This document shows, piece by piece, positions 10,644 through 42,415 of a stretch of 64,000 nucleotides of DNA (position 1 is the first letter of the stretch; every line of letters starts with the position of its first letter). A program made the position numbers and the translations under genes. The notes beneath the pieces are model-generated. The model did no database searches, was not told the origin of the DNA, and worked only from the letters and a program-made list of their open reading frames with translations. This DNA is from SAR202 cluster bacterium (GTDB lineage: Bacteria > Chloroflexota > Dehalococcoidia > Lucifugimonadales > VXLM01). The stretch spans positions 5,945 to 69,944 of the forward strand of contig JAKUTR010000007.1 in assembly GCA_022448725.1 (NCBI GenBank). The letters are read 5' to 3'.

Positions 10644-10937
10644 ATGAAGTCGAAGAGCACGGCAACGAAATCGAAAAAACGTATGGTAGAGCATCTCGAA
10701 GTTCTTAGGGACTACGCGACCCTGGCCATAGGAAACAACCAGATACTGAATTCTAAAGATCAGTCTGATAAAGATGAGCGGATGGCCGAATTTCTTACTA
10801 TAGGCAAAAGCTTAAAGATGGACTACAAGGACCTGGTAGCTCAGGTCTTAGACGGAACGCTAAGTAGCAAGAGACCTGAGTGTGGTTGCCCGACTTGCCA
10901 GAGTCGCGTGGATAAGGATCAACGGTCTATTAAGTGA
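10644..10937 (+). CDS. Small hypothetical protein with C-terminal CxCxxC motif
   Basis: RBS GGAAGGAAG before ATG 10644; Lys-rich N-terminus; ECGCPTC near the C-terminus. Confidence 0.6.
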   Translation: MKSKSTATKSKKRMVEHLEVLRDYATLAIGNNQILNSKDQSDKDERMAEFLTIGKSLKMDYKDLVAQVLDGTLSSKRPECGCPTCQSRVDKDQRSIK

Positions 10938-12700: not shown

Positions 12701-13675
12701 CTAGTACTCCCTTATTAACAGGAACTCTACAATCTGTGAGATTTCGTGTTTGGTAGTGGGAGCGATATCGGCGTTATCAATAGCTTCCATAGCCATTGAG
12801 CCGTGTTCTTGTAATAGGTTCTCCGCGTACTCTTGACTACCAGCAGTGGCCATAATGTCTAGTACATCCACCACATCCTGTCCGGAAATCTCGTTTTTGG
12901 CGTAGATGGATTTCAATTGGTGCTGTTGAGTTCCCTTTGATTGGGCCATTGCATGAACAATTGGGAGGGAATTCTTCTTTCTCCGGATATCTGATCCTAC
13001 TGGCTTGCCCGTTTTTTTCTCTTCTCCCCAAGTACCTAACATATCGTCTCGTATCTGGAAAACATACCCAAGAGAGCGACCGAAATTTTGGAAAGCCTTG
13101 ATACGCACAGTATCTTTCGTGCCAATAACCGCACCGATGTTCACTGAACATCTAATTAAGGCTCCTGTTTTTCGAGAGATCATGTCGAGGTACTCAGCCA
13201 GCTCGGTATCGCTGTGGCCTTCATACGCAACGTCAAGGTACTGTCCTTCGATCATCGATAGGTATGATTCGGTCAATAGATGAACCACTTTAGTTGCAAC
13301 GGTGTAATCTAGGCCTTGCTTATCCAGGTTCCACAAAGCTTGGTCGGCCACTGCACGAAGAAGATTGCCTGCAACGAGTGCTTTTGGTTTGCCCCAAATA
13401 GACCATACTGTCGGCCGACCCCATCGCACCTCGTCTTGGTCCTGAATATCATCATGGACTAAGGAAAAGTTGTGGATGAACTCTACAGAGACTGCCCCCG
13501 GGATTGCGAGGGCGGGATCTCCGCCTACTGCTTCGCACGTCAGAAGACAGAGAGTGGGTCGTAACGCCTTCCCGGTCCTCGAAGCAATAGGTTTTGCATC
13601 TACGTCTACCCAACCCATGTTGTAGCGTAGGACGTCGTAGGCTATACCTTCGCGGTGGTATAGGTGTGAGCGCAT
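12701..13675 (-). CDS. Polyprenyl diphosphate synthase, probably short-chain GGPP synthase (IdsA-type)
   Basis: GKALRP, first Asp-rich motif FSLVHDDIQD with Phe at -5 (chain-length determinant), KTGAL, FQIRDD. The true start is probably upstream (see findings). Confidence 0.9.
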   Translation of the reverse strand: MRSHLYHREGIAYDVLRYNMGWVDVDAKPIASRTGKALRPTLCLLTCEAVGGDPALAIPGAVSVEFIHNFSLVHDDIQDQDEVRWGRPTVWSIWGKPKALVAGNLLRAVADQALWNLDKQGLDYTVATKVVHLLTESYLSMIEGQYLDVAYEGHSDTELAEYLDMISRKTGALIRCSVNIGAVIGTKDTVRIKAFQNFGRSLGYVFQIRDDMLGTWGEEKKTGKPVGSDIRRKKNSLPIVHAMAQSKGTQQHQLKSIYAKNEISGQDVVDVLDIMATAGSQEYAENLLQEHGSMAMEAIDNADIAPTTKHEISQIVEFLLIREY

Positions 13676-13883
13676 TGCAGCGTTCAGGCTTTCTCTATAC
13701 TTTTCGAATGCTGTTGGGAGGCTTATGGTAGTAGTCGTACGTATTTGAGAACCGCCCTTTCTGTCCTCATTGAGCTATCAATTTCACCCGTGTCCGATCC
13801 TCCATTAGCCCCTTTATACAGGCACGAAACGTATCTGTGGAAGATGCTAGCAATACGATCTGTGTTGTGTCAATATGGGCAAC

Positions 13884-13907
13884 CGCAAGTGAAATTTTTC
13901 ACTTGCG
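13884..13907. promoter_or_regulatory. Perfect palindromic operator upstream of nuoA, with Rex/CRP-like core
   Basis: CGCAAGTGAAA-TT-TTTCACTTGCG, 11-bp arms; core GTGAA-N4-TTCAC; overlaps the predicted -35 box. Confidence 0.7.
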
Positions 13908-13931
13908 TAGGTATACCCCCTATGCTATATT
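13903..13931 (+). promoter_or_regulatory. Sigma70-type promoter of the nuo operon
   Basis: TTGCGT (13903-13908), 17 bp spacer, TATATT (13926-13931) with extended TG. Confidence 0.65.
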
Positions 13932-13937
13932 CCGGCC

Positions 13938-14390
13938 ATGGGTGGAGAAGCGGCTGTTCTCGATGACTATTTTCGACACTATGGTCTCGTGGCGATCTTT
14001 ACGGCCGTGGCCGTGGCCGTCCCGGTGGGGATGTTACTGGTGTCTTGGGCGGCTTCATTGAATGTTGATAAACTCACCTTAGGCGGGTTCGGGTCTTTCG
14101 TTCGCGTCCGTCCCTCAAAGCCAGATGATGTGAAAATGAGTATCTACGAGTGTGGTTTCGAGACGCTCTCAGGTACGTGGCATCGGTTTAACTTTCGATT
14201 TTACTCATTCGCCTTGATATTTGTCGTATTTGATGTCGAGGTTGTGTTCCTCTTTCCATGGGCTGCTAGTTTCGGAATACTGTCGACCCAATTTGGAATA
14301 TTTGTGCTGGCGGAGATGGGGCTTTTCATCGCGATATTGGTTGTAGGGTGGTTGTATGCATGGCGCAAAGGTGCCTTGGAGTGGGCTTAA
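13938..14390 (+). CDS. nuoA: NADH-quinone oxidoreductase subunit A
   Basis: KMSIYECGFE, FNFRFYSFALIFVVFDVEVVFLFPWA, YAWRKGALEW. Confidence 0.95.
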   Translation: MGGEAAVLDDYFRHYGLVAIFTAVAVAVPVGMLLVSWAASLNVDKLTLGGFGSFVRVRPSKPDDVKMSIYECGFETLSGTWHRFNFRFYSFALIFVVFDVEVVFLFPWAASFGILSTQFGIFVLAEMGLFIAILVVGWLYAWRKGALEWA

Positions 14391-15026
14391 ATGACGTTTG
14401 ACGATCTGGATTTGCCGGGAAGTTCGATACCCCTATTCAGTAAGACTGGAGATCTTGACCGTCAAGAAGGCGACTATGTCAATTTCCTTAAGTCTAATAA
14501 CACTGAACCCATCGCTGAGCCGCTGATAGAGGTTCCTGATGATCTCAAGAGAAATCTCGCAGTGACTTCTCTTGACGCCTTGGTCAACTGGGGTCGAAAG
14601 TCGGCCGTTTGGCCTTTGTCGTTTGGGCTAGCGTGCTGCGCTTTTGAAATGATGGCGAGTGCGATGTCTCGGTTTGACATATCTCGTTTCGGTATGGAGG
14701 TGTTTAGGGCGTCACCCCGCCAGGCTGATTTGATGATTGTTGCAGGTACCGTCACTTGGAAGATGGCACCTGCCATAGAGCGAGTCTACAAACAGATGGC
14801 TGAACCTAGGTGGGTAATCTCGATGGGTGTTTGCGCGACGAGCGGTGGGCCCTACTATGAGTCTTACAGCGTTGTACCGGGTGTGAACCACATAGTGCCA
14901 GTTGATGTATACGTCCCAGGCTGTCCACCCCGTCCGGACGCACTACTGTATGGGATCATGCAACTCCACGAGAAGATTAAACGATACTCTGTTCTGGGGG
15001 ATGAGATCAGGAACCCAGCGGGATGA
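14391..15026 (+). CDS. nuoB: NADH-quinone oxidoreductase subunit B
   Basis: [42 protein letters not shown] (N2 ligands). Confidence 0.97.
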
Positions 15027-30025: not shown

Positions 30026-30865
30026 TTAGTGTTTAATGCCGTCCGGAATGCCGTACTGACGCTCCAGATTGTTACCTGGCACTGGCCAACCTTGCCCGCC
30101 AATAGTTCCGAACTTATCGTGTTTACCGCTTAACCACATGAACTGCTCTGCGGCATCGTAACTGTCTCGGAATTGCTGCCTGAAGGTTGGTACTTCCCAG
30201 TCCTCATCGCGCCATTCGATCTTCTCTGGGTCGAAGTCGGGATGACTCGTCCAGGTTTTCTCCGGGGCTGTTCGTCTCCAATAGTTATATTTGAGGTTAT
30301 TCCGAACAGCTGCAGCCGTGGACTTTCCGCGCCGGTGCCAAATGTTATAGGCAGTAATCAAGATTGAACCGGCTGGAGACTCTGCTAATTGAGCTCCTCT
30401 TATGCTTCCGTAGTGCCCCATGAACGTCGAGAGGGAGAAGAGGTGGTGTGAGCCCGGCAGCAGTTCAGTTGGTCCCATCTCTGCGGGAGTGTCCTGCGGG
30501 TAGTAAAAGACCTGTAGATAGTTGACAGGAGGTCCCCATTTTGATCCGCCATCGCGGTGCCATTCTTGCGCCGGTTGTGGGCAGTGGACTTTGTGACTGC
30601 TCATGAGGATGGGAAGACCAAAGTCTCTGCCTAGTAAACATCGCACTGCACCAGCCACCTCGGGATGGCAGATCACGTTCTCAACAAACCAGTCCTCGTG
30701 AAGGATATGGCTGGGTTCCGCCCCTTCCCAGTCTTCCATGAACTTCAGGGCCCGCTGGTTAATTTCGTCGGGTACAACTCCTGGGAATGAAAGGAAGCCA
30801 TTTTGGCAGAATTTCAGTACCCCGAAATCGTCTAGTGTTGGTTCGCAGTCGTAAGTTGGTTGCAT
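30026..30865 (-). CDS. Phytanoyl-CoA dioxygenase (PhyH) family Fe(II)/2OG oxygenase
   Basis: WHRDG (HxD), YYPQD, GPTELLPGSH, distal WHRRG, conserved R (VRN). Confidence 0.85.
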   Translation of the reverse strand: MQPTYDCEPTLDDFGVLKFCQNGFLSFPGVVPDEINQRALKFMEDWEGAEPSHILHEDWFVENVICHPEVAGAVRCLLGRDFGLPILMSSHKVHCPQPAQEWHRDGGSKWGPPVNYLQVFYYPQDTPAEMGPTELLPGSHHLFSLSTFMGHYGSIRGAQLAESPAGSILITAYNIWHRRGKSTAAAVRNNLKYNYWRRTAPEKTWTSHPDFDPEKIEWRDEDWEVPTFRQQFRDSYDAAEQFMWLSGKHDKFGTIGGQGWPVPGNNLERQYGIPDGIKH

Positions 30866-30869
30866 CTGC

Positions 30870-31226
30870 TTACCTTATGCGTTCTAGTATGAACTCGCAC
30901 GCTAACCCATATGAGCGAGACTCGTCCATAATTAGGGTTTGGTCAGGGAACCGGATGATGCGCCAGCCATCGTTGATGGCCTCCAATACGGTCTGGTAGG
31001 GCCACTCATCAGGGTTTCGCGATCCGTCAGATATCACACCATCCTCTACTATTTTAAATCCGTGTATCTCGTAGTCTAGGGCGGTTGATCGTGACTGTAC
31101 GTACAAAAGATCCTGCTTAAGCAGCCGGGACTTAGAAATCCCTCGGAGTCTACTTTCCGTAAGTGTGCCAGCACGCAATTCCTCAATGCATTGCGCCAGA
31201 TTGGATTCTAAGCTGTTAGCATCCAC
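30870..31226 (-). CDS. Hypothetical protein (118 aa) coupled to the PhyH gene
   Basis: Stop lies 4 bp before the PhyH start; motif-like 'WPYQTVLEAINDGWRIIRFP...EFILER'. Confidence 0.7.
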   Translation of the reverse strand: MDANSLESNLAQCIEELRAGTLTESRLRGISKSRLLKQDLLYVQSRSTALDYEIHGFKIVEDGVISDGSRNPDEWPYQTVLEAINDGWRIIRFPDQTLIMDESRSYGLACEFILERIR

Positions 31227-31424
31227 TCATCTGCCCCCTTATTCACAGTACTGGTTATATACCCAAGCTGCTGCGATTCTACCTTACAAACCAAAGGGCT
31301 GGCGAGAGAAATAAACAACTTTCGGGTTTGACTTTAATCCTGCGAACTGATAAGTATCACAGGTCGTAGAATAATTGTGGTGTGGAATCTAGTTTCCGTG
31401 CTTCATAATCAATAGGAGAAGCTA

Positions 31425-33887
31425 ATGACTAAAAAGTTAGCATCAACAGGGATACTTTCCGTAATATTAGTGTCAGCAGCCGTTATGGCGGCAGTGGCGT
31501 GCGGCGCAGCCGAGGAGCCTGCAGCTCCATTACCTGCAGCGGCGGCAGCACCAGCTGCAGCTGCTCCGGCGATTGATTACACTACAGAAGTAACTACAGC
31601 AGCCCCTCAAGCCCAGCAGGCACCTGCTGCAGCTGCTCCGGCACGGGCGGCGGCACAGCCAGCAGCCCCTCAGGCACCAGCCGGCACAGGCGCACGATCT
31701 ACTGTGGGGGGTGGCGCTACAGGTGTTGACCCGACCGCAGCTACAGCGGCGTTTAAGTACGTCGCACCGGTGGTAGCACCGGGCGATTACCCCGATCATA
31801 ACTGGGATGGTCCTGTCCCAACCAAGTTTAACGAGTCCCCGATGTCAGCGGCACTCGTAAAGGCTGGAACGCTTCCTCCAGTGGAAGAACGACTCCCCAT
31901 CCCTGAGGACGTCTGGGTACTCGCTCCGTACGACGAAATTGGTCAATACGGCGGGACTATGCGAATTACTAGTTCCCAGCTAAAGACACTAGATCACTTG
32001 GCTACAACCAGCCTGGTTAATGGCGACCCTAGAGGCAATAGTGAGCCTCGTATTATCAAGGCCTATGAGGTCAGTGACGACGGACGTAAGTATACTTTTA
32101 CGAACCGACGAGGCGCTCACTGGTCTGACGGATACCCTTGGACGATGGAGGATGTCAGGTTCGCAATGGAAGACCTGATGTTCAACGCAGGGGATGTCAA
32201 CCCAGCCTCACGCATACCTGGTGAACTCAAGTCTCAAATCACTGGTAACGTGGCTAAGTTCAACGTAGTTGACGATGTGACGTGGACGGTTACTTTTGAT
32301 GACCCTTACTATGACCTCGCGAGTTCGCGGCATATGTGGGGATCCTCGAAGACTCGTGGTTGCCCGAAATGCTACTATGCGCCAGCGCATATTTATAAGA
32401 GGTACCACGTTGATTACAACCCGGAAGAAAACGCCGCTCTCATGGAGAAGTATGGCGTCGATAGTCCCAAGAACCTTTTTAACAAGATCAAAAATGTTCG
32501 TTCCGGTCCTGGCCTTGACTGGAGGCAGACAGGCCCTCAGCCGAGCGTAGCTGACCCGAACTACATCTACAAGGGTGAGCCGTATGCGGCAGCAATGTCT
32601 GAGTTGCTCCAGACGCACTGTTGTGAAGGTGGCCGTGGGGCAACCCGAAACCATTTCTTCATTGGTGTGGATCCGGAAGGCAACCAGCTCCCCTACATGG
32701 ACGGCCAAGAGTTAATTAGGGTGGAGAACCGTGACGTCGGTGTCTTCCGTGCAATGAACGGCGAAAATGACTACTTCGGTGGTGACATGGTATTGAGTGA
32801 GATGCCGCTGTATATCTCTAACATGGACAAGGGTGACTACAGCGTAATGATCTTCCGATCCCCTGCAGGAACCGACTCAGCGACCGTCATTAACCAGGAA
32901 TATATCGAAGATCCTGAGATCGGCGCTCTGATGCGAACGAAAGACTTCCGCAAGGCTCTTTCTCTTGGTATCGACCGTGATATTTTGAATGAGGTCGTAG
33001 CTAGTGGTATTGGAACCCCTCAGCAGTGGGTCCCGCACCCGAGTACTCCGTACTACCCAGGAGCTGACTACGCTAACCTTGACACCACACAGGACATACC
33101 TGCTGCCAAGGCCTTGCTTGCAAAGATGGGATACTCGGATGCTGATGGCGATGGATGGCTCGATCGTAAGGATGGCACTGGGCCTCTGAAGATTAAGTTC
33201 TACACCAACAACCGGCTTACCTGGCCTCACGTCCAAATAATGGCATCACATTGGGAGAAGTTGGGTATCAAATGGGATCTGGATTATTCCAGTACGAGTA
33301 AGAAGATGAACATTGCGAATCCTACGCTCTACCTAGATCAGCACTATTCGCTCTACTCCATGAACCAATGGACGGTTACTTGGACCAGGGCGTTTGCAGG
33401 CACCGGTGGTGCTCCAGTGGGTGCTGCTATGGGTGGGTACTTCCAGTCCTTTGGTGAGGGTGGAATGGCCCCAACCGGAGGGGACGCTGCATACACAGAT
33501 GCGTATGGGACACAGGCTAGTGCTAACAACTACCCGGCTGACATATCCGGTAATGTTAAGGAAATGCAGGATATCTGGCGTACTGGTATTCAAACTGGCG
33601 CAACCTATGATCCCAAGCGTGTTGAGATGGGCAAGAAGTGGTGGAGGATAGGCGCCGAGGAGAAGTACAATATCGGTGCTCTTGCTTACATGGGGATCTT
33701 CCGGGGCATGACAAAGAAGCGAAATAATGTACGGAACGTCCCGAAGAACCACGTAGCGCTAGAGGGTAAAGGAGTATTAGGGCTCTACTATTTTGAGGAT
33801 GGTCTGGACAATATGACTAATCCGGGCAACCGTTCGAAGAAATATAAGAGTGTCCACTTCCTAGACCCTGAGTACTGGACCAACTAG
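31425..33887 (+). CDS. ABC transporter substrate-binding lipoprotein, family 5 (peptide/nickel-type)
   Basis: Lipobox AVA-C, Ala/Pro linker, 'GTLPPVEERLP', 'IGQYGGT', 'WSDGYPWTMEDV.F', 'VDPEGNQLPYMD', 'FRKALSLGIDR'; RBS AGGAG. Confidence 0.9.
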   Translation: MTKKLASTGILSVILVSAAVMAAVACGAAEEPAAPLPAAAAAPAAAAPAIDYTTEVTTAAPQAQQAPAAAAPARAAAQPAAPQAPAGTGARSTVGGGATGVDPTAATAAFKYVAPVVAPGDYPDHNWDGPVPTKFNESPMSAALVKAGTLPPVEERLPIPEDVWVLAPYDEIGQYGGTMRITSSQLKTLDHLATTSLVNGDPRGNSEPRIIKAYEVSDDGRKYTFTNRRGAHWSDGYPWTMEDVRFAMEDLMFNAGDVNPASRIPGELKSQITGNVAKFNVVDDVTWTVTFDDPYYDLASSRHMWGSSKTRGCPKCYYAPAHIYKRYHVDYNPEENAALMEKYGVDSPKNLFNKIKNVRSGPGLDWRQTGPQPSVADPNYIYKGEPYAAAMSELLQTHCCEGGRGATRNHFFIGVDPEGNQLPYMDGQELIRVENRDVGVFRAMNGENDYFGGDMVLSEMPLYISNMDKGDYSVMIFRSPAGTDSATVINQEYIEDPEIGALMRTKDFRKALSLGIDRDILNEVVASGIGTPQQWVPHPSTPYYPGADYANLDTTQDIPAAKALLAKMGYSDADGDGWLDRKDGTGPLKIKFYTNNRLTWPHVQIMASHWEKLGIKWDLDYSSTSKKMNIANPTLYLDQHYSLYSMNQWTVTWTRAFAGTGGAPVGAAMGGYFQSFGEGGMAPTGGDAAYTDAYGTQASANNYPADISGNVKEMQDIWRTGIQTGATYDPKRVEMGKKWWRIGAEEKYNIGALAYMGIFRGMTKKRNNVRNVPKNHVALEGKGVLGLYYFEDGLDNMTNPGNRSKKYKSVHFLDPEYWTN
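31500..31750 (+). repeat. Low-complexity Ala/Pro/Gln-rich linker with imperfect GCAGC/CCAGC repeats
   Basis: Encodes AAEEPAAPLPAAAAAPAAAAP...APQAQQAPAAAAPARAAAQPAAPQAP; locally GC-rich. Confidence 0.6.
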
Positions 33888-33910
33888 TAGCAAGAAAGAA
33901 GCTATTCTAG

Positions 33911-33952
33911 AAAGGGGCCCGGTAGAAACTTCTACCGGGCCCCTTCTCTTTT
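33911..33952. terminator. Rho-independent terminator, probably bidirectional
   Basis: AAGGGGCCCGGTAGAA / TTCTACCGGGCCCCTT inverted repeat followed by CTCTTTT, between convergent genes. Confidence 0.85.
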
Positions 33953-33960
33953 GCAACGGC

Positions 33961-34686
33961 CTAATTGGCGCTCAGTTTAGCGGCACTAAAAGCTTCTTCA
34001 GCTGCATCAAGAATTAGGTCATCGATACGGATGTTTATAGTGGCGTCCTCCGCCATCTGTTTTCCCGCTCGATTAACAGCGTCGCGGACGGTTTTTTGAA
34101 ATTCTTGGACCTTTGGATGTGTTGGTTGACCAGGAAGGCCAAACGACTGCGCAATATCCTGCGCACCGGAGTTAAAGAGGTCAATTCCATCAACTGAGAG
34201 GATACCATCGATCTCATCCAGGACAGCCACGTCTTCTAGCTGCGCTATCACGAGGATCTGCGAATTAGTGTGAGCCATGTACTCCGTCGTGGACTCATTC
34301 CTACCATAATATGAGCCTCGGCCCGAGCCCAGGCTACGGTGCCCCTCAGGGACGTATCTACACGCATCAGCAAGTTGTTTTGCTTTGGCCTGGCTGGAGA
34401 TATGTGGTCCCATGATCCCCATGATGCCACGATCGAGGAACCGAAGAATCGTAGGTGCTTGGATGTCAGGTACTCGTGCAAGCGGGGTCAGGCCTACGGA
34501 GTCAGCAACCATGCAAAGGTCATCAATCAAATCAACGGTGAAAGGTCCATGTTCAGCATCAAATAGTACGAAGTCAAACCCAACTGTTCCCAGCATCTCG
34601 ACCAGAGAGGTCGAGGGGACCTTCATGGTTATGCCGATGGGTGTGTTCCCAGAATTGAGTTTACTTACCACCTTGTTTATTCGCAT
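33961..34686 (-). CDS. HpcH/HpaI family aldolase
   Basis: GFDFVLFDAEHG, ARVP, GIMGPHI, RY.PEGHRS, IAQLE, SGAQD. ATG 34686 follows AGGAGG. Confidence 0.88.
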   Translation of the reverse strand: MRINKVVSKLNSGNTPIGITMKVPSTSLVEMLGTVGFDFVLFDAEHGPFTVDLIDDLCMVADSVGLTPLARVPDIQAPTILRFLDRGIMGIMGPHISSQAKAKQLADACRYVPEGHRSLGSGRGSYYGRNESTTEYMAHTNSQILVIAQLEDVAVLDEIDGILSVDGIDLFNSGAQDIAQSFGLPGQPTHPKVQEFQKTVRDAVNRAGKQMAEDATINIRIDDLILDAAEEAFSAAKLSAN

Positions 34687-34798
34687 ATAGCCTCCTTTAT
34701 CAGAGGGCATTGTATGCGAGTGATCTAGTGGCACTCAACAGGCTGATGCGGTAGCGTCAGAGCGTTGGGAAGAAGTTTGGCGCTGTTCTCCGAAGATT

Positions 34799-35098
34799 TT
34801 AGTTCTTTCGGAGCCCGTTCAAGATGATCAGGACGATAACGATGAAGAGCGCCCCCAGGATTGGAAGAGTCTGCCTTGTGTCCAATGTCCCTGTGTCACT
34901 CAGGGACGTGGAGCCGGGGGGAGTTTCAGGGGCTGTTTCTCTATTCTTGCTGCTTTGACCCACACCGCCCATACGAAAGACGCGTGTCTCACATATCGAA
35001 CAGATCCCGACCGATGCTGGACGCCCCGTCTTCGTAGTCGTCGGTGTGACGTCAAGCAACTCCCGTCGCTCGTTGCACTTTACGCAGTACGCCTCCAT
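34799..35098 (-). CDS. DUF5679-type zinc-ribbon protein with C-terminal transmembrane helix
   Basis: MEAYCVKC...GRPA..GICSICET.VFRMG, S/T/P linker, hydrophobic tail ILGALFIVIVLIILN followed by RKN. Confidence 0.75.
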   Translation of the reverse strand: MEAYCVKCNERRELLDVTPTTTKTGRPASVGICSICETRVFRMGGVGQSSKNRETAPETPPGSTSLSDTGTLDTRQTLPILGALFIVIVLIILNGLRKN

Positions 35099-35152
35099 GG
35101 GCTGATCTCCAAACCTGCTTTCACTAACAGATAGCTAAGGTGTAACGGCCTT

Positions 35153-36193
35153 TCAGTTTAGCTTCCCCTCACGGTGGGCGGTAATGTAGTTCATCGAGAA
35201 ATCATCTCGTCCTTCAAGCACATCCATCGCAAATTTTACAGGCTCAGACTCTTTGTCTAGTGCAAAAACTCTACTGAGTTTTGTTGCAATTGGGTCAAGG
35301 ATGCCTGCGTCGATGCCTGCGTCAATTGCTAGATGTATGAATGTATCGTTTAACAGGCGTCGATTGGGCATTCCGAATGAAACGTTACTAAGCCCCATAC
35401 CAATATGGATGTCGTTACCGTACTGCTCGCGAATCATGCGAACGGCGTCAAAGTAATGGTTACCGTACTGAGGGTCGACCGATATCGGGAAGATAATACC
35501 ATCTACATAGATGTCGTCGTCTGGGATATCTCGTGATCGTACAGTCTCCATAATTGTGCCAAGATTCTCTAGACGTTCATCGGCATCTTGTGGCATTCCG
35601 TCTGCGCTTGTACACATCAAAATCATCTTAGCATTGTGCTCCACGACCATATCAAGCGCATCCATTCGTTCGGCGGCTACGGAGTTGATCATTGGTCGAC
35701 CGGCACGTCCGTCATACGCTTCTAAGCCCGCTACGACTATGTCTGAGTTTGAGGAGTCGATGCTCGGAGGTATCGGAGAAACCTCCTGTACGGTATCAAC
35801 AGCAAAACGTATACAGGCCTTTTGGATTTCGAGGTTGTAGTGTACTTCGTCAGCATTGATATCAAGGTACTTCGATCCTGCCTTAACTTGGCGTCTTACC
35901 TCATGGCGTATATACGCTTTGGCCTCCTCACGTTCGTCAGGATCGTCACTAATGCCTTTTCGCATAGCTATCAAGAAGTGTTTGATTTGGTTTTGTTGGT
36001 ACGGTTGTGTCTCCTTGTACCAATCGGGCACTGTAAGTAAGCGGTCTTCGCCATCATCGCCCTTGAAAGGAACAACCTCAGTGCCATCATCCAATGTGGT
36101 TGCACGCCGGCCGTTACGTAGGAGAACCCGGGTGGCATGAATGTTTTCACCCACGATTGTGAACTGTTCCGGTGACGTGATAGCTCTGGGCAT
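35153..36193 (-). CDS. Methyltetrahydrofolate:corrinoid methyltransferase (AcsE-like pterin-binding domain)
   Basis: IVGENIH, QVKAG..YLDIN, SIDS, MINSV, YVD, GLSNVSFGMPNR..LN..F, GILDP. Confidence 0.85.
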   Translation of the reverse strand: MPRAITSPEQFTIVGENIHATRVLLRNGRRATTLDDGTEVVPFKGDDGEDRLLTVPDWYKETQPYQQNQIKHFLIAMRKGISDDPDEREEAKAYIRHEVRRQVKAGSKYLDINADEVHYNLEIQKACIRFAVDTVQEVSPIPPSIDSSNSDIVVAGLEAYDGRAGRPMINSVAAERMDALDMVVEHNAKMILMCTSADGMPQDADERLENLGTIMETVRSRDIPDDDIYVDGIIFPISVDPQYGNHYFDAVRMIREQYGNDIHIGMGLSNVSFGMPNRRLLNDTFIHLAIDAGIDAGILDPIATKLSRVFALDKESEPVKFAMDVLEGRDDFSMNYITAHREGKLN

Positions 36194-36238
36194 CTGGTTT
36201 TATCCTCAGGGGGTATTTAGTGTCTATTAATTATTGGA

Positions 36239-37279
36239 TTAGTTGACGCTGTGCATTGCGTGCCAATCCTTAACAGATTTTGGTATTTCCAGTAGGTTCT
36301 CAAGCTTGGTGGCAAGCGGGATTGCGCACTCTGGCGCAATCATATCTACACCAGCGTCCATTGCACGAAAGACCTCTTCCCGTACCTCCTCTGGCCCCTT
36401 TGAATAAAGGGTTACGGGGTTATTAATATTCCCGACCAATGCGATGCGGCCGTCGACTATATCCATCGACTCTTGAGGATCGTTTTTGGAGTCGAAGTGG
36501 AAGGCTGCCATATTGCTACGGGCGATTCCATCCATTCTGTCGGTGGTCTTCCCGCAGATGTGTAGAATCAACGGAACGGGCAGCCGTTCGACCATCTCTT
36601 GGTGTATTTCCAGTAGGAACTTATCGTAGTAGGCCCCGCTAACTAGATCACCTGTAGCATGATCCGGGAAGGTCAGGACGTCCGCGCCTGCGTCAATCTG
36701 CGCCTCTCCAAACAGGACCGATATTTCTTTGAGTTTATGCAGTGTGCGAAGCGTCTCGTCCGGATCATCAATAGACATTAGTAAGAAACGCTCTACGCCA
36801 AACACGTGATAAGCGAGGGTCCACGGGCCCATAGTTTTTCCTATTAGTGCTACTTCATCGCCGAATTCTGCTTTTAGCATCTGGATAGACCGGGTAATCG
36901 CCACATTGTCTTGGTGTTCGAGGAAGCCTGGAGGGATATGAACGTCATCTGGACCGTTCCATATCGGATTGGTCATTCTAACCGTTGGCCAATTGTCCTT
37001 TTCCTCCCATTGCATTTCACAACCGAGGGCCGAAGATTCTTGAATAATAGAGAAGTAGGGCATGATCGAATCAAAACCAAGCTCGGTATATCCTGTTGCA
37101 GCAAGCCTAGCGTTTAACTCTGGATCGCGGTTTGCCGCAGGGAAGGGAGAGTCAACCATATCCATCAGTTCTACTGTTGCCACATTTGTGGGATTCGCGA
37201 TGGGTGTTCTATCCACGGGTTTGAGCGCAAGCGCATTTAAAACCCGCTCTTTTGGTGTCATGCTCTCGACGATTGCCAA
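36239..37279 (-). CDS. MtaA/CmuA family methyltransferase (UroD fold), paralog 1
   Basis: MT..ER...AL...VDR.P start, GPWTL, Zn ligands LHICG and APEC, LVGNIN. Confidence 0.87.
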   Translation of the reverse strand: MAIVESMTPKERVLNALALKPVDRTPIANPTNVATVELMDMVDSPFPAANRDPELNARLAATGYTELGFDSIMPYFSIIQESSALGCEMQWEEKDNWPTVRMTNPIWNGPDDVHIPPGFLEHQDNVAITRSIQMLKAEFGDEVALIGKTMGPWTLAYHVFGVERFLLMSIDDPDETLRTLHKLKEISVLFGEAQIDAGADVLTFPDHATGDLVSGAYYDKFLLEIHQEMVERLPVPLILHICGKTTDRMDGIARSNMAAFHFDSKNDPQESMDIVDGRIALVGNINNPVTLYSKGPEEVREEVFRAMDAGVDMIAPECAIPLATKLENLLEIPKSVKDWHAMHSVN

Positions 37280-37291
37280 AATCTCCTCCTT

Positions 37292-38341
37292 CTAAACAGT
37301 ACTTCGGTCCTCGGTGTACCAATCGTGTACCGCACGTGGAATCTCAAGGACATTGTCGAGTTTCGCGGATAATGGTACCGCACATTCAGGCGCAATCATA
37401 TTGACTCCGGCATCCATACAGGCGAAAACCTCACGGCGGACGTCTGCAGGTGTTCCCGCGAAGATAGTGTTCGGATTGTTGATATTCCCTACCAGTGCAA
37501 TACGGCCATCGACAATTTGCATCGCCTCTGCAGGGTCGTTCTTGGAGTCGAAGTGGAAGGCGGCCATATCATTCTGTGCAATATAGCCGAGCCTGTCGAT
37601 TGTTCTACCACAGATGTGCAGAATCAAAGGTACCTTTAGTCGGTCGGCCATCTCTTGGTGTATCTCTAAAAGGAACTTACGATAGTATTCACCACCTACG
37701 AGGTCGCCGGTGGCATGGTCAGGGAAAGTCAATGCATCAGCGCCGGCGTCGATTTGCGCGTTCCCGTGGAGCACCGATACCTCCTTGAGTTTGTGTAGAC
37801 AACGGAGAGTTAAATCTGGGTCATCGATACTCATTAGCAGCCAGTTCTCGACCCCGAAGGTGTGATATCCAAGAGTCCACGGGCCCATGGTTTTTCCAAT
37901 CACGGCACATTCCTTACCCAAATCGCGTTTCAATATGAGTGTTGAGTCAATGATGCACTTGACGTCCGGGTGCTCTAAAAAGTTGTTTGGTATTCGAATG
38001 TCTTTGAGTGATTTCCATATGGGGTTTCCCATCCGAACCGTGGGCCAGTTGTCCTTTTGCTCCCACTGTATTTCGCAACCGAGTGCAGATGACTCCTGAA
38101 TGATCGTTGCGTGGTGGTAGGTTGAATCAAAGCCTAGTTCAAGGTAACCAGTTGCAGCCAGCCGGGCATTCAGGTCCGCGTCTCTGCATGCGTCCGGGAA
38201 AGGTGAGTTCATCAAATCCATCATATCCACTGTGAAAACACTGGTAGGGTTGCAGAGTGGAGTTCGGTCGACTGGTCTCCCGTTAAGGGCATTAAGCACT
38301 CGCTCGCGTGAGGTCATTGTCTCAATCATAGGAGATTCCAA
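37292..38341 (-). CDS. MtaA/CmuA family methyltransferase (UroD fold), paralog 2
   Basis: Same motifs (VDRTP, GPWTL, LHICG, APEC); colinear with paralog 1. Confidence 0.87.
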   Translation of the reverse strand: MESPMIETMTSRERVLNALNGRPVDRTPLCNPTSVFTVDMMDLMNSPFPDACRDADLNARLAATGYLELGFDSTYHHATIIQESSALGCEIQWEQKDNWPTVRMGNPIWKSLKDIRIPNNFLEHPDVKCIIDSTLILKRDLGKECAVIGKTMGPWTLGYHTFGVENWLLMSIDDPDLTLRCLHKLKEVSVLHGNAQIDAGADALTFPDHATGDLVGGEYYRKFLLEIHQEMADRLKVPLILHICGRTIDRLGYIAQNDMAAFHFDSKNDPAEAMQIVDGRIALVGNINNPNTIFAGTPADVRREVFACMDAGVNMIAPECAVPLSAKLDNVLEIPRAVHDWYTEDRSTV

Positions 38342-38441
38342 TTAATGTATAGAACGTAAGATATTTTAAGGTCGCTCAATCGATACTTGATGGATTTAAG
38401 TAGGTTTGCTCTGAGGCGTAGCTACATAATCCACTCTAGGT

Positions 38442-39125
38442 CTATGTTTGTGAGAAGCCCAGAGTTCCGGTCGTCATCTGTCCACGCATGTCCTCGGCGT
38501 CGAGCATCTCCGCTGTGCCAGTTACATTGCGGGCATACGGAAGGGTGAGTCTGACTAGGCCATCACGGCGTCCTCCGTGTGTGAACGCAACGTGGCTGTC
38601 ACTTACGCGTTCCATATCCCCATATCGAACAAAGCCTTGTAAACAAGCTCGGATTCTTACAGCAGGATTTTTGTAGTCACCCTCAGCGGTGACTCGGTAC
38701 GCCCAGCGGTCATTGTCATTCTCTGGTTCTACGATGAGTTGTAGTGGGGAACGTAAGTCCTTGATCTCGATGCGGCCAGAGGGATGTTTTGTACCGTACG
38801 GTTTCTCAACAGCCTGGCGCAGAAGAAAGCGTAGAGGCCGACCGTACGTCTCATTATCAGGAAAACGGGCCTGATTTTTCGTATCTAGCATGGGAACCAT
38901 GTCACCTAGTTCGACAAGTTGATCACGAATCTGCTCTAGGCGTTTCTCGGTGCCCGGCTTTTGGCTGAAACTCCATACGGTGAATACCTCATTCTTCAAG
39001 TAGAGCCCTACGGTGATCTCTTCAAAGTTAGGATCCATCGAAATAAGTTCCATGCAAGTACCGTATTTTTCTAGTGCTTCTTGTACCTGCCCACCTTTGC
39101 CCAGTCCTTGATTTGCTGTGTTCAT
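38442..39125 (-). CDS. Uncharacterised protein (227 aa) in the methyltransferase cluster
   Basis: RBS AAGGAG before ATG 39125; directly downstream of the homocysteine methyltransferase; no recognised family. Confidence 0.8.
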   Translation of the reverse strand: MNTANQGLGKGGQVQEALEKYGTCMELISMDPNFEEITVGLYLKNEVFTVWSFSQKPGTEKRLEQIRDQLVELGDMVPMLDTKNQARFPDNETYGRPLRFLLRQAVEKPYGTKHPSGRIEIKDLRSPLQLIVEPENDNDRWAYRVTAEGDYKNPAVRIRACLQGFVRYGDMERVSDSHVAFTHGGRRDGLVRLTLPYARNVTGTAEMLDAEDMRGQMTTGTLGFSQT

Positions 39126-39147
39126 AGTATGTTTCTCCTTGTCCGCC

Positions 39148-40044
39148 TCACCCTTTTTTTCTAATAAGTTCAGAGAGTGCATTGATGTGTGTAGGAGTAG
39201 TGCCACAGCAGCCTCCTACGATGTTGATCCCAATGTCAATTAATTTCTGGAATCCCTGGGCCATGAATTTGGGGCTTTCTGGATATACGATCTGTCCTTT
39301 TCGAATTTCTGGAATCCCTGCATTTGAGTGTATGAGCAGATATCCAGGGTCAACATCCCGTAGCTCCCTTGCCAAGATCACCATGTCGTCTATACCGCTT
39401 CCACAGTTGGCACCCACAACATCTGCGCCAGCTGCCCGGAGCTTCTTAGTAGCGTCTTCAGGAGAGTTTCCCATCATAGTGAACCACCCACGGGGTCCTC
39501 TCGTAAACATCATCGTACTTATCACGACGAGGTTTGTGTACTCTTTCGCAGCCTTGATGGCAAGAGATGCTTCCTCAACCGATATCATAGTCTCGATATC
39601 AATGGAGTCTACCCCGCCTGCTTCAAGGGCTGTGACTTGTTCGACAAAAGCTTCATACACTTCACTGTCTGGGGTGGTGCCCGAATTACTCTCCAAGAGC
39701 TCGCCTGTTGGGCCGATTGAGCCTGCTACGAATTGCCCGCTACTAGACTGGCTACGTGCGTGCTGGGCTCCAAGTATGTTCAATTCGGCAACGCGATCCC
39801 CATACCCGTACTTTTTTAGCATAAAGCTAGTGCCGCCAAAGGTATTAGTCAACACCATGTCAGCACCTGCAAAGAAGTACTCCCTAGCCATGGCTTGGAT
39901 GACTTCAGGATTAGCTGAGTTCATCTCCTCCGGGCAGCCGCCCGGTTCTAGCCCGTGAGACTGTAAGTAGGTCCCTGTGGCTCCATCCGATATAAGGACA
40001 TCTCCGGCAGCGAGTTGCTGACGGAGGTTATTTGCAAGGGTCAT
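39148..40044 (-). CDS. Stand-alone homocysteine S-methyltransferase (MetH N-terminal/Bmt-like domain)
   Basis: DGATGT, GAD...TNTFG, AGSIGPTG, IETM, Zn ligands GANC and GGCCGTTP, SNAG.P. Confidence 0.92.
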   Translation of the reverse strand: MTLANNLRQQLAAGDVLISDGATGTYLQSHGLEPGGCPEEMNSANPEVIQAMAREYFFAGADMVLTNTFGGTSFMLKKYGYGDRVAELNILGAQHARSQSSSGQFVAGSIGPTGELLESNSGTTPDSEVYEAFVEQVTALEAGGVDSIDIETMISVEEASLAIKAAKEYTNLVVISTMMFTRGPRGWFTMMGNSPEDATKKLRAAGADVVGANCGSGIDDMVILARELRDVDPGYLLIHSNAGIPEIRKGQIVYPESPKFMAQGFQKLIDIGINIVGGCCGTTPTHINALSELIRKKG

Positions 40045-40384
40045 TCGTTGTTAACCAGTTATCAATCGCTCCGGGGTTTGGGTCGCGTAGTCCTGTCTTA
40101 TGAAGATCTCGGATGCGATTCACAAAATCTTGGGGCATGCCATTGTTGTAACGTGTAGTCACTGCACTTGCCGCTTCCTCGGACGTACACTCCATTTCGA
40201 TAAAGTCCCCCCAATTCCATGCCATAAGGTAATCATCCGAGTGCGCACTCCCGTCAAACATAGAGACTGCGTCGACGCCTTGCTGGAATCGCTCGTCTAG
40301 CTGTTTGGAAATTTGCCCTGATTCATCTTCAGCTTGAACCTGCACAGGAATTTCCTTCCAGTACATAACTCGTACCCTTGCCAT
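40028..40384 (-). CDS. 'Virulence factor' (PF13769-like) small protein
   Basis: 'MYWKEIPVQV.A......L.ERFQ..VD..SM......DDYL..W' pattern; overlaps the next gene by 17 bp. ATG 40384. Confidence 0.75.
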   Translation of the reverse strand: MARVRVMYWKEIPVQVQAEDESGQISKQLDERFQQGVDAVSMFDGSAHSDDYLMAWNWGDFIEMECTSEEAASAVTTRYNNGMPQDFVNRIRDLHKTGLRDPNPGAIDNWLTTNDPCK

Positions 40385-40480
40385 CTGTTCCAACCCCCCA
40401 AGTTCGGTGATTATTATATCGGTGTGACAGGCATAGAGCGAACGTTAATTCATAGATTCTCAAGTTCAGGGTGAGCGTCT

Positions 40481-42415
40481 TTAGACGTATTTGTCCAACC
40501 AAGAGAGTACCCTTGTAAAGTAAGCGATACGCATTTGGGGGGGACCAGACTTTCGGAAGGTATGGGATGAGTTAGGGAAGCGGACAAACTCTACTTCCTT
40601 CCCCAGCCGCTTGAGCGCCACGAAATATTGCTCGCTTTGCTCAATAGGACATCGGAAGTCATCCTCGCCGTGAAGTAGAAGTACGGGGGTATCAACATTC
40701 GGGGCGTAGGTGATCGGGGAATGGTATAGGAACTTATCACGCGCCTCAGTATAAATCCCGCCCCAGTTGAGTTCGCCGAAACTGGTACCGATGTCGGAAG
40801 TCCCATACATGCTATGTAGATTTGCGCACATAGCGCCAACTAGAGCAGCCTTAAACCTGGTGTCGTGTCCGATAATCCAACTGCTCATGAATCCCCCGTA
40901 GCTAAAACCATGCACGGCTAGCCTATCCGGGTTCACGTAAGGTTGTTCACTTAGTTTGTCTACTGCGGCAATTATGTCGAGAAAATCTTCACCACCCCAG
41001 TCTCCTAATACCGACTTTGTAAACTCTGGACCATAAGTGGATGAACCACGGGGATTCACTGCAAGGACGATGTAACCTGCTGAAGTGATAACTTGTTGAA
41101 TGGGATCAAAATTATCTGCAAATCGCCCGTTTGGTCCTCCGTGTATGTCAAGAACCATGGGGTACCGCTTTGAAGAGTCGAACTCTGGCGGGAACAGGAC
41201 CCGCGATTCGATCTCCAGTCCGCTGCGCTTGAGCACAAACTTTTCCAACTTGGCCGGCCTATGGGCTGCAAGGTATTCACTGTTATCGGAGGCAATAACT
41301 GTGCGATTGCCGGATTCGAGTTCGATGTGGCATATGTCTGCATAGGCCGTGGGGGACTGCTCGATCACTATGGCACTTTGCGCAGTTGCTTCGATAGTAA
41401 GCGAATCATACTGGACGCTGCCCCCGATGATGGTTTTGTCGACCTCAGTTTCGGGATTGAGTTTTCTGACGTAGTACTGGCCCCATCGTGCACCAATGTA
41501 AAAGAGACTGTCGGTTCTCCAGTTTAGGCCACCCTCACGAACTGGGGTATATTCTCCATTTGTTACCTGGCGAGCTTGCGATCCTGGCTCTAGGATGTAC
41601 ATCCACGCTGAACGAGGATCCCACATCTCGGGATCGTGGCAACCCATACTTGCTAATTTAGTTGAGTCTGGGGACCAGGCAATCGACCAGACGTACGGGA
41701 GTCCCCCTGACCAGTCCTCCGGTTCTCCACCCAATGGGTTCACTACAAAGGCCGCTTCATGATTCGTATAGTCACGTTCAGCCAAGGCATCAGAAATATA
41801 GGCGATACGGGTCCCGTCTGGAGCCCAGCGGGGGGAAATAGCGTCTCCTTCACCGGTGGTAATTTGTCGGATCTCCCCAGTAGACACATCAATTGTAAAC
41901 AACTGTCTGAAGGCATTACCGATCCAACCTCGGAAGTCGTGACGATAACGTATGCGGTTTACGACCCGCACATCCGTGCTGTCATCTTCATCAACCTCAG
42001 CTATGAATGCGAGCTTGTCCGAGTCTGGTGACCAGTCAAATTGCGGGCCACTCTCTAGGTTATCGACGAGTCCATTTTCAAGCTGGGTCAGTTGCTTGGC
42101 TGGGCCACCTGACACCGAAACAATCCACAGTTGTTTGTGACCGTTTTCAGCCTTGCGCGCGAAGGCAATAGTTCGCCCATCAGGGGAGAAGACAGCAGTC
42201 GAGTCGCTGGGGCCGCTGGTGAGCTCTGTAAATTCTGTGAACTGACCAGTGGCAGACCTTTGTGAAATCATGAGCATGGATATCGTTTCCATGGTTCCAC
42301 GCCTGATGGTTTGTTTCGTTATGATGAGTGTGTTGCCGTCAGGCGCAAGCGAAGCCGCAGACGACCCCGTCATCTCAAAGATGTGATCAGAGGTAATTGG
42401 TTTCGTTGTTGCCAT
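40481..42415 (-). CDS. S9 family peptidase (acylaminoacyl/prolyl oligopeptidase)
   Basis: PD40-like WSPD repeats, IHGGP, NPRGS, GFSYGG nucleophile, LHGEDDFRCP, C-terminal His. Confidence 0.93.
   Translation of the reverse strand: MATTKPITSDHIFEMTGSSAASLAPDGNTLIITKQTIRRGTMETISMLMISQRSATGQFTEFTELTSGPSDSTAVFSPDGRTIAFARKAENGHKQLWIVSVSGGPAKQLTQLENGLVDNLESGPQFDWSPDSDKLAFIAEVDEDDSTDVRVVNRIRYRHDFRGWIGNAFRQLFTIDVSTGEIRQITTGEGDAISPRWAPDGTRIAYISDALAERDYTNHEAAFVVNPLGGEPEDWSGGLPYVWSIAWSPDSTKLASMGCHDPEMWDPRSAWMYILEPGSQARQVTNGEYTPVREGGLNWRTDSLFYIGARWGQYYVRKLNPETEVDKTIIGGSVQYDSLTIEATAQSAIVIEQSPTAYADICHIELESGNRTVIASDNSEYLAAHRPAKLEKFVLKRSGLEIESRVLFPPEFDSSKRYPMVLDIHGGPNGRFADNFDPIQQVITSAGYIVLAVNPRGSSTYGPEFTKSVLGDWGGEDFLDIIAAVDKLSEQPYVNPDRLAVHGFSYGGFMSSWIIGHDTRFKAALVGAMCANLHSMYGTSDIGTSFGELNWGGIYTEARDKFLYHSPITYAPNVDTPVLLLHGEDDFRCPIEQSEQYFVALKRLGKEVEFVRFPNSSHTFRKSGPPQMRIAYFTRVLSWLDKYV

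Follow-up and report, generated by a model that had tools for sequence, protein, structure and literature searches.

A conserved SAR202 gene cluster with a candidate role in modular cobalamin-dependent methyl transfer

A six-gene cluster on the minus strand

We analysed a 64,000-nt stretch of the genome of a SAR202 cluster bacterium (contig JAKUTR010000007.1 of assembly GCA_022448725.1). This whole stretch is called the window here, positions are counted along it, and the host genome is an assembly of 2.09 Mb in 75 contigs that is 95% complete. The window carries, at 35153-40393, a compact group of six same-direction genes on the minus strand, named A to F in the order of transcription and separated by -17 to 100 nt (Table 1). 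Their products are methyltransferases of three kinds together with two orphan proteins, and we propose that they take part in a modular system in which methyl groups would pass through one small corrinoid protein. The first-pass annotation of this DNA, made from the letters alone, had listed the same six genes with this order, direction and placement, and its domain assignments agree with the Pfam and NCBIfam matches that we obtained (PF13769, PF02574, PF01208 and PF00809). For gene A the open reading frame list gives a TTG start, while the ATG start agrees with the N-termini of homologues.

Table 1. Features of the cluster and its surroundings in the window
Feature	Position	Strand	Description
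A	40028..40384	-	PF13769 ('Virulence_fact') protein, 118 aa from ATG; 121 aa from TTG at 40393
B	39148..40044	-	stand-alone MetH-type homocysteine S-methyltransferase, 298 aa, MtgE-like module; PF02574
C	38442..39125	-	227 aa, no described family
D	37292..38341	-	MtaA/CmuA-family Zn methyltransferase, 349 aa; rarer, divergent paralogue
E	36239..37279	-	MtaA/CmuA-family Zn methyltransferase, 346 aa; orthologue of relatives' single copy
F	35153..36193	-	AcsE/MtgA-like methyl-corrinoid:tetrahydrofolate methyltransferase, 346 aa; PF00809
DUF5679 gene	34799-35098	-	directly 3' of F; protein with hydrophobic C-terminus
Aldolase gene	33961-34734	-	HpcH/HpaI-type aldolase, downstream of F
Palindrome	33912-33945		G+C-rich, 15-bp stem, between convergent genes ending at 33887 (+) and 33961 (-)

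The zinc, homocysteine and folate methyltransferases

The two zinc enzymes, D and E, match PF01208 over their whole length (D residues 10-341, E-value 1.6e-59; E residues 8-338, E-value 7.9e-62), and we placed them by family-model scores and by the match to solved structures. The best solved relative of E is the methanogen methyltransferase MtaA (4ay7, 1.4e-44), with true uroporphyrinogen decarboxylase (UroD) structures following only from 2.7e-13. Both proteins carry the motif pair LHICG...APEC. In E the residues H240-x-C242 and C318 align with the LHICG and APGC zinc ligands of 4ay7, and these three ligands are invariant in all 16 aligned family sequences, D included. The TIGR01463 (mtaA_cmuA) scores are 224.5 bits for D and 228.7 for E, with a cut-off of 235.4; for the PRK06252 subfamily (cut-off 244) E scores above, at 250.6 bits, and D below, at 231.1. 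Neither protein reaches the equivalog level of MtaA (NF040654; 206.6 and 223.1 bits for the two, cut-off 400) or of MtbA (NF041608; 163.5 and 191.9 bits, cut-off 600). As candidates for HemE (TIGR01464 equivalog, cut-off 302.95) the two were rejected, since they score 57 and 68.4 bits. On these scores and motifs D and E are MtaA/CmuA-family enzymes and not uroporphyrinogen decarboxylases, as the first-pass annotation had suspected.

D and E are 70% identical to each other, and both are single-domain proteins in which the corrinoid-domain fusion of CmuA is not present. E falls with its closest Dehalococcoidia counterparts in a clade with 98 support in the Shimodaira-Hasegawa-like approximate likelihood ratio test (SH-aLRT), and is orthologous to the universal copy described below. 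D groups with the first-copy paralogues of five two-copy loci (SH-aLRT 97, in a quick tree that carries a long-branch warning) and shares with them a 'TYHH' motif.

The homocysteine methyltransferase B matches PF02574 at 5e-62 and has the GANC and GGCC motifs. Its best solved relative is the homocysteine domain of Thermotoga maritima MetH (1q7m, 2.3e-44), and its matches to BHMT (2.7e-17) and to S-methylmethionine-type homocysteine methyltransferase (1.4e-9) are both weaker than that to the MetH domain. The folate methyltransferase F matches PF00809 (1.5e-17) and PRK07535 (200 bits) behind an N-terminal extension of about 90 aa. Among solved structures it is closest to 4o0q (5.3e-28), which we take to be MtgA of the glycine-betaine pathway of Desulfitobacterium, the entry itself being titled dihydropteroate synthase (DHPS), and to AcsE (2yci, 1.5e-26); the MetH match is weaker (1.9e-15).

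A cluster conserved across phyla

When one genome was scanned for each species, C turned up in 213 loci, of which the best 80 were analysed: 67 from Chloroflexota, 9 from Acidobacteriota and 4 from Entotheonella/Tectimicrobiota. Genes were counted by tblastn with the proteins of the window where strand and order both agreed. An MtaA-like gene follows C in 78 of the 80 loci, the two misses being short contigs, and is 66-88% identical to E. Gene A was found in 71 loci, B in 70, a corrinoid protein gene in 64 (57-89% identity), a RACo-type activase gene (Fer2, RACo_middle and RACo_C_ter domains) in 46, F in 38 and a methylenetetrahydrofolate reductase (MTHFR) gene in 13. E and the corrinoid protein are the most conserved genes of the cluster. 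With X for the MtaA-like gene, Z for the corrinoid protein gene and R for the activase gene, the arrangement A-B-C-X-Z-R was present in each of seven further genomes, four of which are small genomes of the window's own order. An F-like gene was present in all five relatives checked, in four of them outside the cluster.

Co-occurrence was counted in a phylum sample of 401 genomes. C was found in nine of the ten genomes that have an E orthologue (at least 67% identity) and in none of the 391 others; the tenth has its MtaA-like gene 160 nt from a contig end. The gene set goes beyond chance, since it is syntenic in 78 of the 80 loci of other species and in all seven further genomes, and the expectation that it is conserved as a unit was in this way confirmed.

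The window's version nevertheless departs from the common one: its MtaA-like gene is duplicated, F follows the two copies, the corrinoid protein gene lies elsewhere and an activase gene was not found. A single MtaA-like gene is present in 73 of the 80 loci, and two copies in 5. Judged from the sequences compared, the canonical cluster has one MtaA-like gene, a corrinoid protein gene and a RACo activase gene, and the window holds a derived form. The two MtaA-like enzymes of the first-pass annotation are therefore real in the window, whereas the canonical cluster has one such enzyme plus the two components that the window lacks.

Small genes of the families DUF4268 (29 of 80 loci), DUF433 (32 of 80) and DUF5615 (28 of 80) are inserted between C and the MtaA-like gene in many loci of Dehalococcoidia. 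The inserts span about 700-5700 nt after locus position 10650, a recurrent spot in an otherwise fixed operon, and look like toxin-antitoxin-type or mobile cassettes.

The nine acidobacterial loci all have C-X-F, eight have the corrinoid gene, seven have RACo and some have MTHFR; B is absent from all nine. A PF02574 search of four Acidobacteriota genomes found an open reading frame of MetH size (1241-1308 aa) in three, where in two it is the sole PF02574 match, and three shorter ones (334-630 aa) in the fourth. Two Entotheonella genomes have full-length MetH and B together. More distant MtaA-like genes, 42-51% identical to E, occur in 36 further genomes of the 401-genome sample. Of eight such loci fetched, four have a corrinoid protein gene and a pterin methyltransferase gene adjacent, three of those four with RACo, and none of the eight has A, B or C. 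Because B is missing from the acidobacterial and the distant loci, the core unit appears to be the MtaA-like enzyme (with C), the corrinoid protein, the folate methyltransferase and the activase. We read this core as a putative substrate:folate corrinoid system, and B (and A) as an added methionine branch.

The orphan proteins A and C

Protein A matches PF13769 at 1.1e-14 and is, in one protein, fused N-terminally to PF02574. Its AlphaFold2 (AF2) model has a mean predicted local distance difference test score (pLDDT) of 93.9, yet Foldseek gave no match at E<=0.001 and the best VIA-wide Z was 2.7. We regard A as an accessory protein that goes with the homocysteine methyltransferase.

Protein C has no match in Pfam or NCBIfam at E<=0.01. 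A collection of 5.8 billion proteins holds 370 homologues, all unnamed or 'hypothetical'; wherever a source is given, the label is Dehalococcoidia, Chloroflexota or SAR202. When 1.84 billion representatives were searched with a profile, 232 clusters were obtained. They include a distant subfamily of about 210 aa with the tail RGVLxAPSAQ and two F-x-C-G-x-x-H motifs, which are lost in the clade of the window's C; a Pfam scan of 16 members of this subfamily assigned no family to any of them. The proteins retrieved from the phylum sample of 401 genomes were all orthologues of C. The AF2 model of C (pLDDT 84.5) has two alpha/beta domains, at residues of about 19-110 and 113-201, followed by a tail (206-227) that scores below 50 and carries the invariant stretch RGQMTTGTLGF. 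For this fold Foldseek found no match in the PDB at E<=0.001, the best VIA-wide Z of 7.1, over 87 residues of one domain, lies within the tool's stated background, and the ESM Atlas gave no usable match. Fused forms of C were not found among longer proteins, which is weak evidence.

A predicted complex between C and E

Complex prediction for C with E gave ipSAE values of 0.87, 0.88 and 0.88, and 0.00 for all three controls. The runs agree in at least 88% of contacts, and the pLDDT of the partners is at least 86. In the tool's calibration 58 of 80 solved complexes, and 2 of 110 mismatched pairs, attain this ipSAE mark; the calibration is only rough here, where our own alignments were used. On the side of C the predicted interface comprises residues 10-56 and the tail at 212-225; on the side of E it comprises 36-41, 65-67 and 93-102 together with the active-site residues H207, C242 and C318-A323. 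Among 75 orthologues the identity of E is 0.91 at the interface and 0.79 elsewhere. The non-catalytic interface positions L38, D40, P45, E66, K94, N96, W97, T99, M102, Y292 and E327 are invariant in orthologues, mostly kept in D, and variable in 8 homologues whose loci lack C. These models predict that C binds E, with its invariant C-terminal tail placed at the zinc site. The first-pass annotation had left C as an unknown protein of 227 aa; it indeed belongs to no known family, and to this can be added that, by synteny and by the predicted complex, it is the tightest-linked partner of the MtaA-like enzyme.

Corrinoid protein and methionine synthesis in the host genome

The host genome encodes a single methyltransferase-type corrinoid protein, on contig C23; its 262 aa comprise a cap domain and a B12-binding domain, and it carries the motif DLHDIG. 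That the cluster uses it is suggested by the linkage of the two in relatives. F is the only PF00809 gene of this genome, and its three PF02574 genes are all of 300-335 aa. Searches with PF02574, PF00809 and PF02965 found no full-length MetH. A split B12-dependent synthase made of B, F and the corrinoid protein, which would share its corrinoid with the other methyltransferases, is plausible because a full-length MetH is absent, in line with the split hub of the first-pass annotation.

The same genome yielded no MetH activation domain (PF02965), no RACo or RamA (PF14574 search and tblastn with the RACo of a relative), no DUF1638 (PF07796), no MttB-family match (PF06253) and, besides D and E, no PF01208 gene above cut-off. 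Two MetE-like genes (PF01717) lie on contig C3, at 30619-31590 (+) and 13622-14581 (-), with 362 and 353 aa; both score under every methionine-synthase equivalog cut-off. One adjoins an SsuD-like alkanesulfonate monooxygenase gene and the other an arylsulfatase-like gene. On contig C10 (33168-34088 and 36362-37264, both minus strand) a second PF02574 paralogue and an MTHFR gene are about 2.3 kb apart; the product of the latter shares 66% identity with the MTHFR that is linked to the cluster in relatives. A FolP-type dihydropteroate synthase was not found in the host genome, and all five relatives have a strong FolP-like match as well as an F-like one; the missing FolP could reflect folate auxotrophy or an assembly gap.

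Surroundings and environmental occurrence

The DUF5679 gene and the aldolase gene that follow F on the same strand are not conserved beside the cluster in relatives, where the aldolase is a same-strand neighbour in 1 of the 80 loci. The palindrome beyond them may act as a bidirectional terminator at the end of the minus-strand unit headed by A. An Rfam scan of the whole window at gathering score found no family, hence no cobalamin riboswitch, and a promoter and terminator scan of 33800-40800 found 4 promoter-like and 5 terminator-like sites, under the shuffle means of 8.0 and 5.8.

The 5.35-kb stretch that holds the cluster was matched at no fewer than half of the sampled words in 16 DNA runs, all from marine plankton, sea-water or marine metagenomes; they belong to at least seven named studies, and four runs name no study. 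RNA contigs from four metatranscriptome runs of three studies match A, B/C, D/E and F over short pieces, with 90-100% identity. These contigs are compatible with transcription of those pieces, read with the limits that they give no level, strand or single transcript, that DNA carry-over is possible and that the uncovered parts are uninformative.

Relation to known corrinoid methyltransferase systems

A literature search that covered sources outside subscription journals and supplements found no published description of the cluster, nothing on PF13769, no report of a coenzyme M (CoM) methyltransferase in SAR202, Dehalococcoidia, sponge symbionts or Entotheonella, and no report of MtaA, corrinoid or methylcobamide in SAR202 beyond one preprint on freshwater Chloroflexi, without MtaA. 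Of published systems, MtgBCDE (2025) and the type 1 mlp clusters of anaerobes (Kountz & Balskus, 2023 preprint) come closest, and each of them is set apart from the cluster by defining features.

In Ruegeria pomeroyi MtgBCDE is a split MetH that doubles as a glycine-betaine methyltransferase (PMC12478193), and Phaeobacter inhibens has a three-part MetH (PMC5764234). The first-pass annotation had recognised no characterised system with the architecture of a methyl-transfer hub; that view has to be given up, since MtgBCDE is a precedent. What these systems and ours have in common is separate PF02574, PF00809 and cap plus B12-binding proteins without a classical MetH, a RamA/RACo-type activase (here in relatives), a linked MTHFR in some loci and, as we would expect here, one corrinoid protein that serves both methionine synthesis and a substrate-specific methyltransferase. 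The core with its methionine outlet through B and A follows the same logic as MtgBCD with MtgE. In contrast to MtgBCDE, whose MtgB is of the MttB family, the cluster has an MtaA-family zinc enzyme. Unlike both systems it comes without a detected DUF1638 but with two extra conserved proteins, PF13769 and C, and its hosts are Chloroflexota, Acidobacteriota and Tectimicrobiota.

With the methanogen enzymes MtaA and MtbA and with MtsA and MtpA, D and E share the UroD-fold TIM barrel, the His-x-Cys...Cys zinc site and a small MtaC/MtbC-like corrinoid partner. They differ in lying under the MtaA and MtbA equivalog cut-offs, in the non-methanogenic marine host, and in the linkage to folate and homocysteine methyltransferases and to C. 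The type 1 mlp clusters (PMC10418091) have two or three Mlps, no folate methyltransferase, and obligately anaerobic, mostly Firmicutes hosts. Here we usually find one MtaA-like gene with a pterin methyltransferase, a homocysteine methyltransferase, A and C, in sea-water metagenomes. The combination that marks a type 1 mlp cluster, at least Mlp2 and Mlp3 beside a corrinoid protein and Ram/RACE and without a folate methyltransferase, is not what the loci contain, given the single MtaA-like gene in most of them and the presence of F in 38 of the 80 loci and elsewhere in the genome of relatives checked. Finally, the bacterial four-component systems of substrate methyltransferase, corrinoid protein, folate methyltransferase and activase (O-demethylases, MtgBCA and CdmBCA) have the same layout, an AcsE/MtgA-like folate methyltransferase and a RACo-type activase; in the cluster, unlike in O-demethylases and CdmB, the zinc ligands are those of thiol enzymes, and a homocysteine branch and the obligatory-looking partner C are added.

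Discussion

We propose that the cluster serves modular cobalamin-dependent methyl transfer, in which a sulfur or selenium compound (through E or D with C), a corrinoid protein, folate (through F) and methionine (through B) would be connected. We hold this proposal with moderate confidence, at about even odds. One small corrinoid protein, here the one encoded on contig C23, would be the centre of the system. In the conserved core E, and here also D, would work as a complex with C; the corrinoid protein and F belong to it as well, and relatives add an ATP-dependent reductive activase of the RACo type. This core would exchange methyl groups between tetrahydrofolate and a sulfur (or selenium) compound of low molecular weight, bound by the zinc at the His-Cys-Cys ligands. 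In Dehalococcoidia and Entotheonella, B (with A) would have been added to draw methionine from the same methyl-corrinoid, and in the host of the window B, F and the corrinoid protein would together make up a split B12-dependent methionine synthase.

The genes, their families, the conserved ligands, the synteny and the co-occurrence are seen in the sequences, and the complex of C with E is a prediction; what we infer is the class of substrate, the way in which methyl groups run and the use of a single shared corrinoid protein. E and D are read as methyltransferases of a sulfur or selenium compound because their His-Cys-Cys site is invariant and because demethylases of the MT2 family are known. 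Within the UroD superfamily His-Cys-Cys marks sulfur and selenium methyltransferases (PMC10418091), and MT2-family demethylation of methyl sulfides has been described for MtsA on dimethyl sulfide (DMS) and methylmercaptopropionate (MMPA) and for MtpA on MMPA and MPA (10.1101/548461). The likeliest flow would start at a methyl-thioether or sulfonium donor, such as MMPA, dimethylsulfoniopropionate (DMSP), DMS or methanethiol, and would run through E or D with C to the corrinoid protein and on to homocysteine (B) or tetrahydrofolate (F). This direction is favoured by the analogy with MtgBCDE and with the four-component demethylase systems.

Several observations count against this proposal. D and E both lie slightly below the TIGR01463 cut-off. 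The complex was modelled without zinc or corrinoid, and the tail of C may merely fill an empty pocket. The corrinoid protein gene is unlinked to the cluster in the window's genome, where it stands between unrelated genes. With no RACo, MetH activation domain or DUF1638 found there, corrinoid reactivation in this genome is unexplained. The genome also has the two short MetE-like genes and two more PF02574 genes, and B may not be its sole methionine synthase. Lastly, moving a methyl group from a thioether onto tetrahydrofolate costs energy. Unless a sulfonium compound is the donor or the product is drawn off, this speaks for the opposite direction; the reverse transfer, from methyl-folate to a thiol, is energetically favourable. 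Demethylation of MMPA by MtpA has itself been called unfavourable (10.1101/548461).

That opposite direction is the main rival, although we think it unlikely. Methyl-tetrahydrofolate, supplied by a linked MTHFR, would be passed by F to the corrinoid protein, from which E or D with C would methylate a second thiol or selenol and B would methylate homocysteine, making the cluster a thiol methylase with two outlets. The nearest characterised relatives, MtaA and MtbA, run in this way, MtaA methylating CoM; MtpA is fastest as a methylcobalamin:MPA methylase (10.1101/548461); and MTHFR is linked in 13 of the 80 loci. On the other hand, the conserved cluster encodes no candidate for the acceptor or for its downstream use, the characterised bacterial sets of methyltransferase, corrinoid protein, pterin methyltransferase and activase carry methyl groups from substrate to folate (PMC10418091), and MtsA and MtpA show the family to be capable of demethylation.

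A non-sulfur donor for E or D with C, either a methyl halide as for CmuA or an aryl methyl ether as for the O-demethylases, seems improbable to us. Methyl halides are present in sea water, TIGR01463 spans both MtaA and CmuA, and O-demethylases and haloalkane methyltransferases fall within the UroD superfamily (PMC13222342). The zinc ligands point elsewhere: His-Cys-Cys is invariant here, while O-demethylases have carboxylates in place of the cysteines (PMC10418091) and CdmB lacks zinc (PMC13222342). CmuA is moreover a corrinoid-domain fusion and D and E are unfused. The first-pass annotation had methyl groups being stripped from thiols, halides or similar donors; the ligand set leaves its sulfur donors in place and disfavours, at the level of sequence, both halide and O-methyl donors.

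A little less probable again is the idea that E, C and A are auxiliaries of the split methionine synthase, which would prime, re-methylate or gate its corrinoid in place of DUF1638 or the MetH activation domain. It would account for the failure to find DUF1638, PF02965 or RACo in the host genome and for the high conservation of E and the corrinoid protein, and the split MetH of Phaeobacter requires DUF1638 for reasons that have not been explained (PMC5764234). Yet E and C occur where no split MetH needs them, since the acidobacterial loci have C, E, F, the corrinoid protein and RACo without a stand-alone B, and three of the four genomes searched encode a protein of MetH size; RACo, besides, accompanies E and C in 46 of the 80 loci. 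As for D and E being true uroporphyrinogen decarboxylases placed here by coincidence, the URO-D name of PF01208 and the lack of a further PF01208 gene above cut-off in the host genome give this almost no chance against the very low HemE scores, the far better match to MtaA, the MtaA-type zinc ligands and the conserved synteny with corrinoid protein and activase.

Returning to the proposal of a sulfur-directed system centred on one corrinoid protein, we tentatively put forward a bolder version, which we consider clearly less probable than the general one. The cluster could encode a missing corrinoid-dependent methyl-sulfur demethylase of oxic marine bacteria, in which E would be active only together with the new-fold protein C and would send methyl groups of DMSP, MMPA, DMS or methanethiol through one corrinoid protein to homocysteine and folate. 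In it the tail RGQMTTGTLGF of C would reach the zinc site, and its methionine, which has the CH3-S-CH2-CH2 group of MMPA and of free methionine, may mimic the substrate from within the complex or act as a gate.

At least 213 genomes, each standing for a species, carry the cluster; they belong to Chloroflexota (chiefly Dehalococcoidia, with some labelled SAR202), Acidobacteriota and Tectimicrobiota/Entotheonella. If our proposal is true, the principle of methionine synthase as a methyl hub would extend from proteobacterial glycine betaine to a second class of enzymes, directed at sulfur or selenium, in further phyla that are abundant in the sea, and would place an extra demand for B12 on these lineages. 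It would also give a concrete role to two orphan families, PF13769 and the unnamed family of C with its 232 representative clusters. We know of no gene for corrinoid-dependent methyl-sulfur turnover outside anaerobes, and the cluster would be a candidate for it; on the demethylase reading, these cells would obtain methionine and C1 units from organosulfur compounds.

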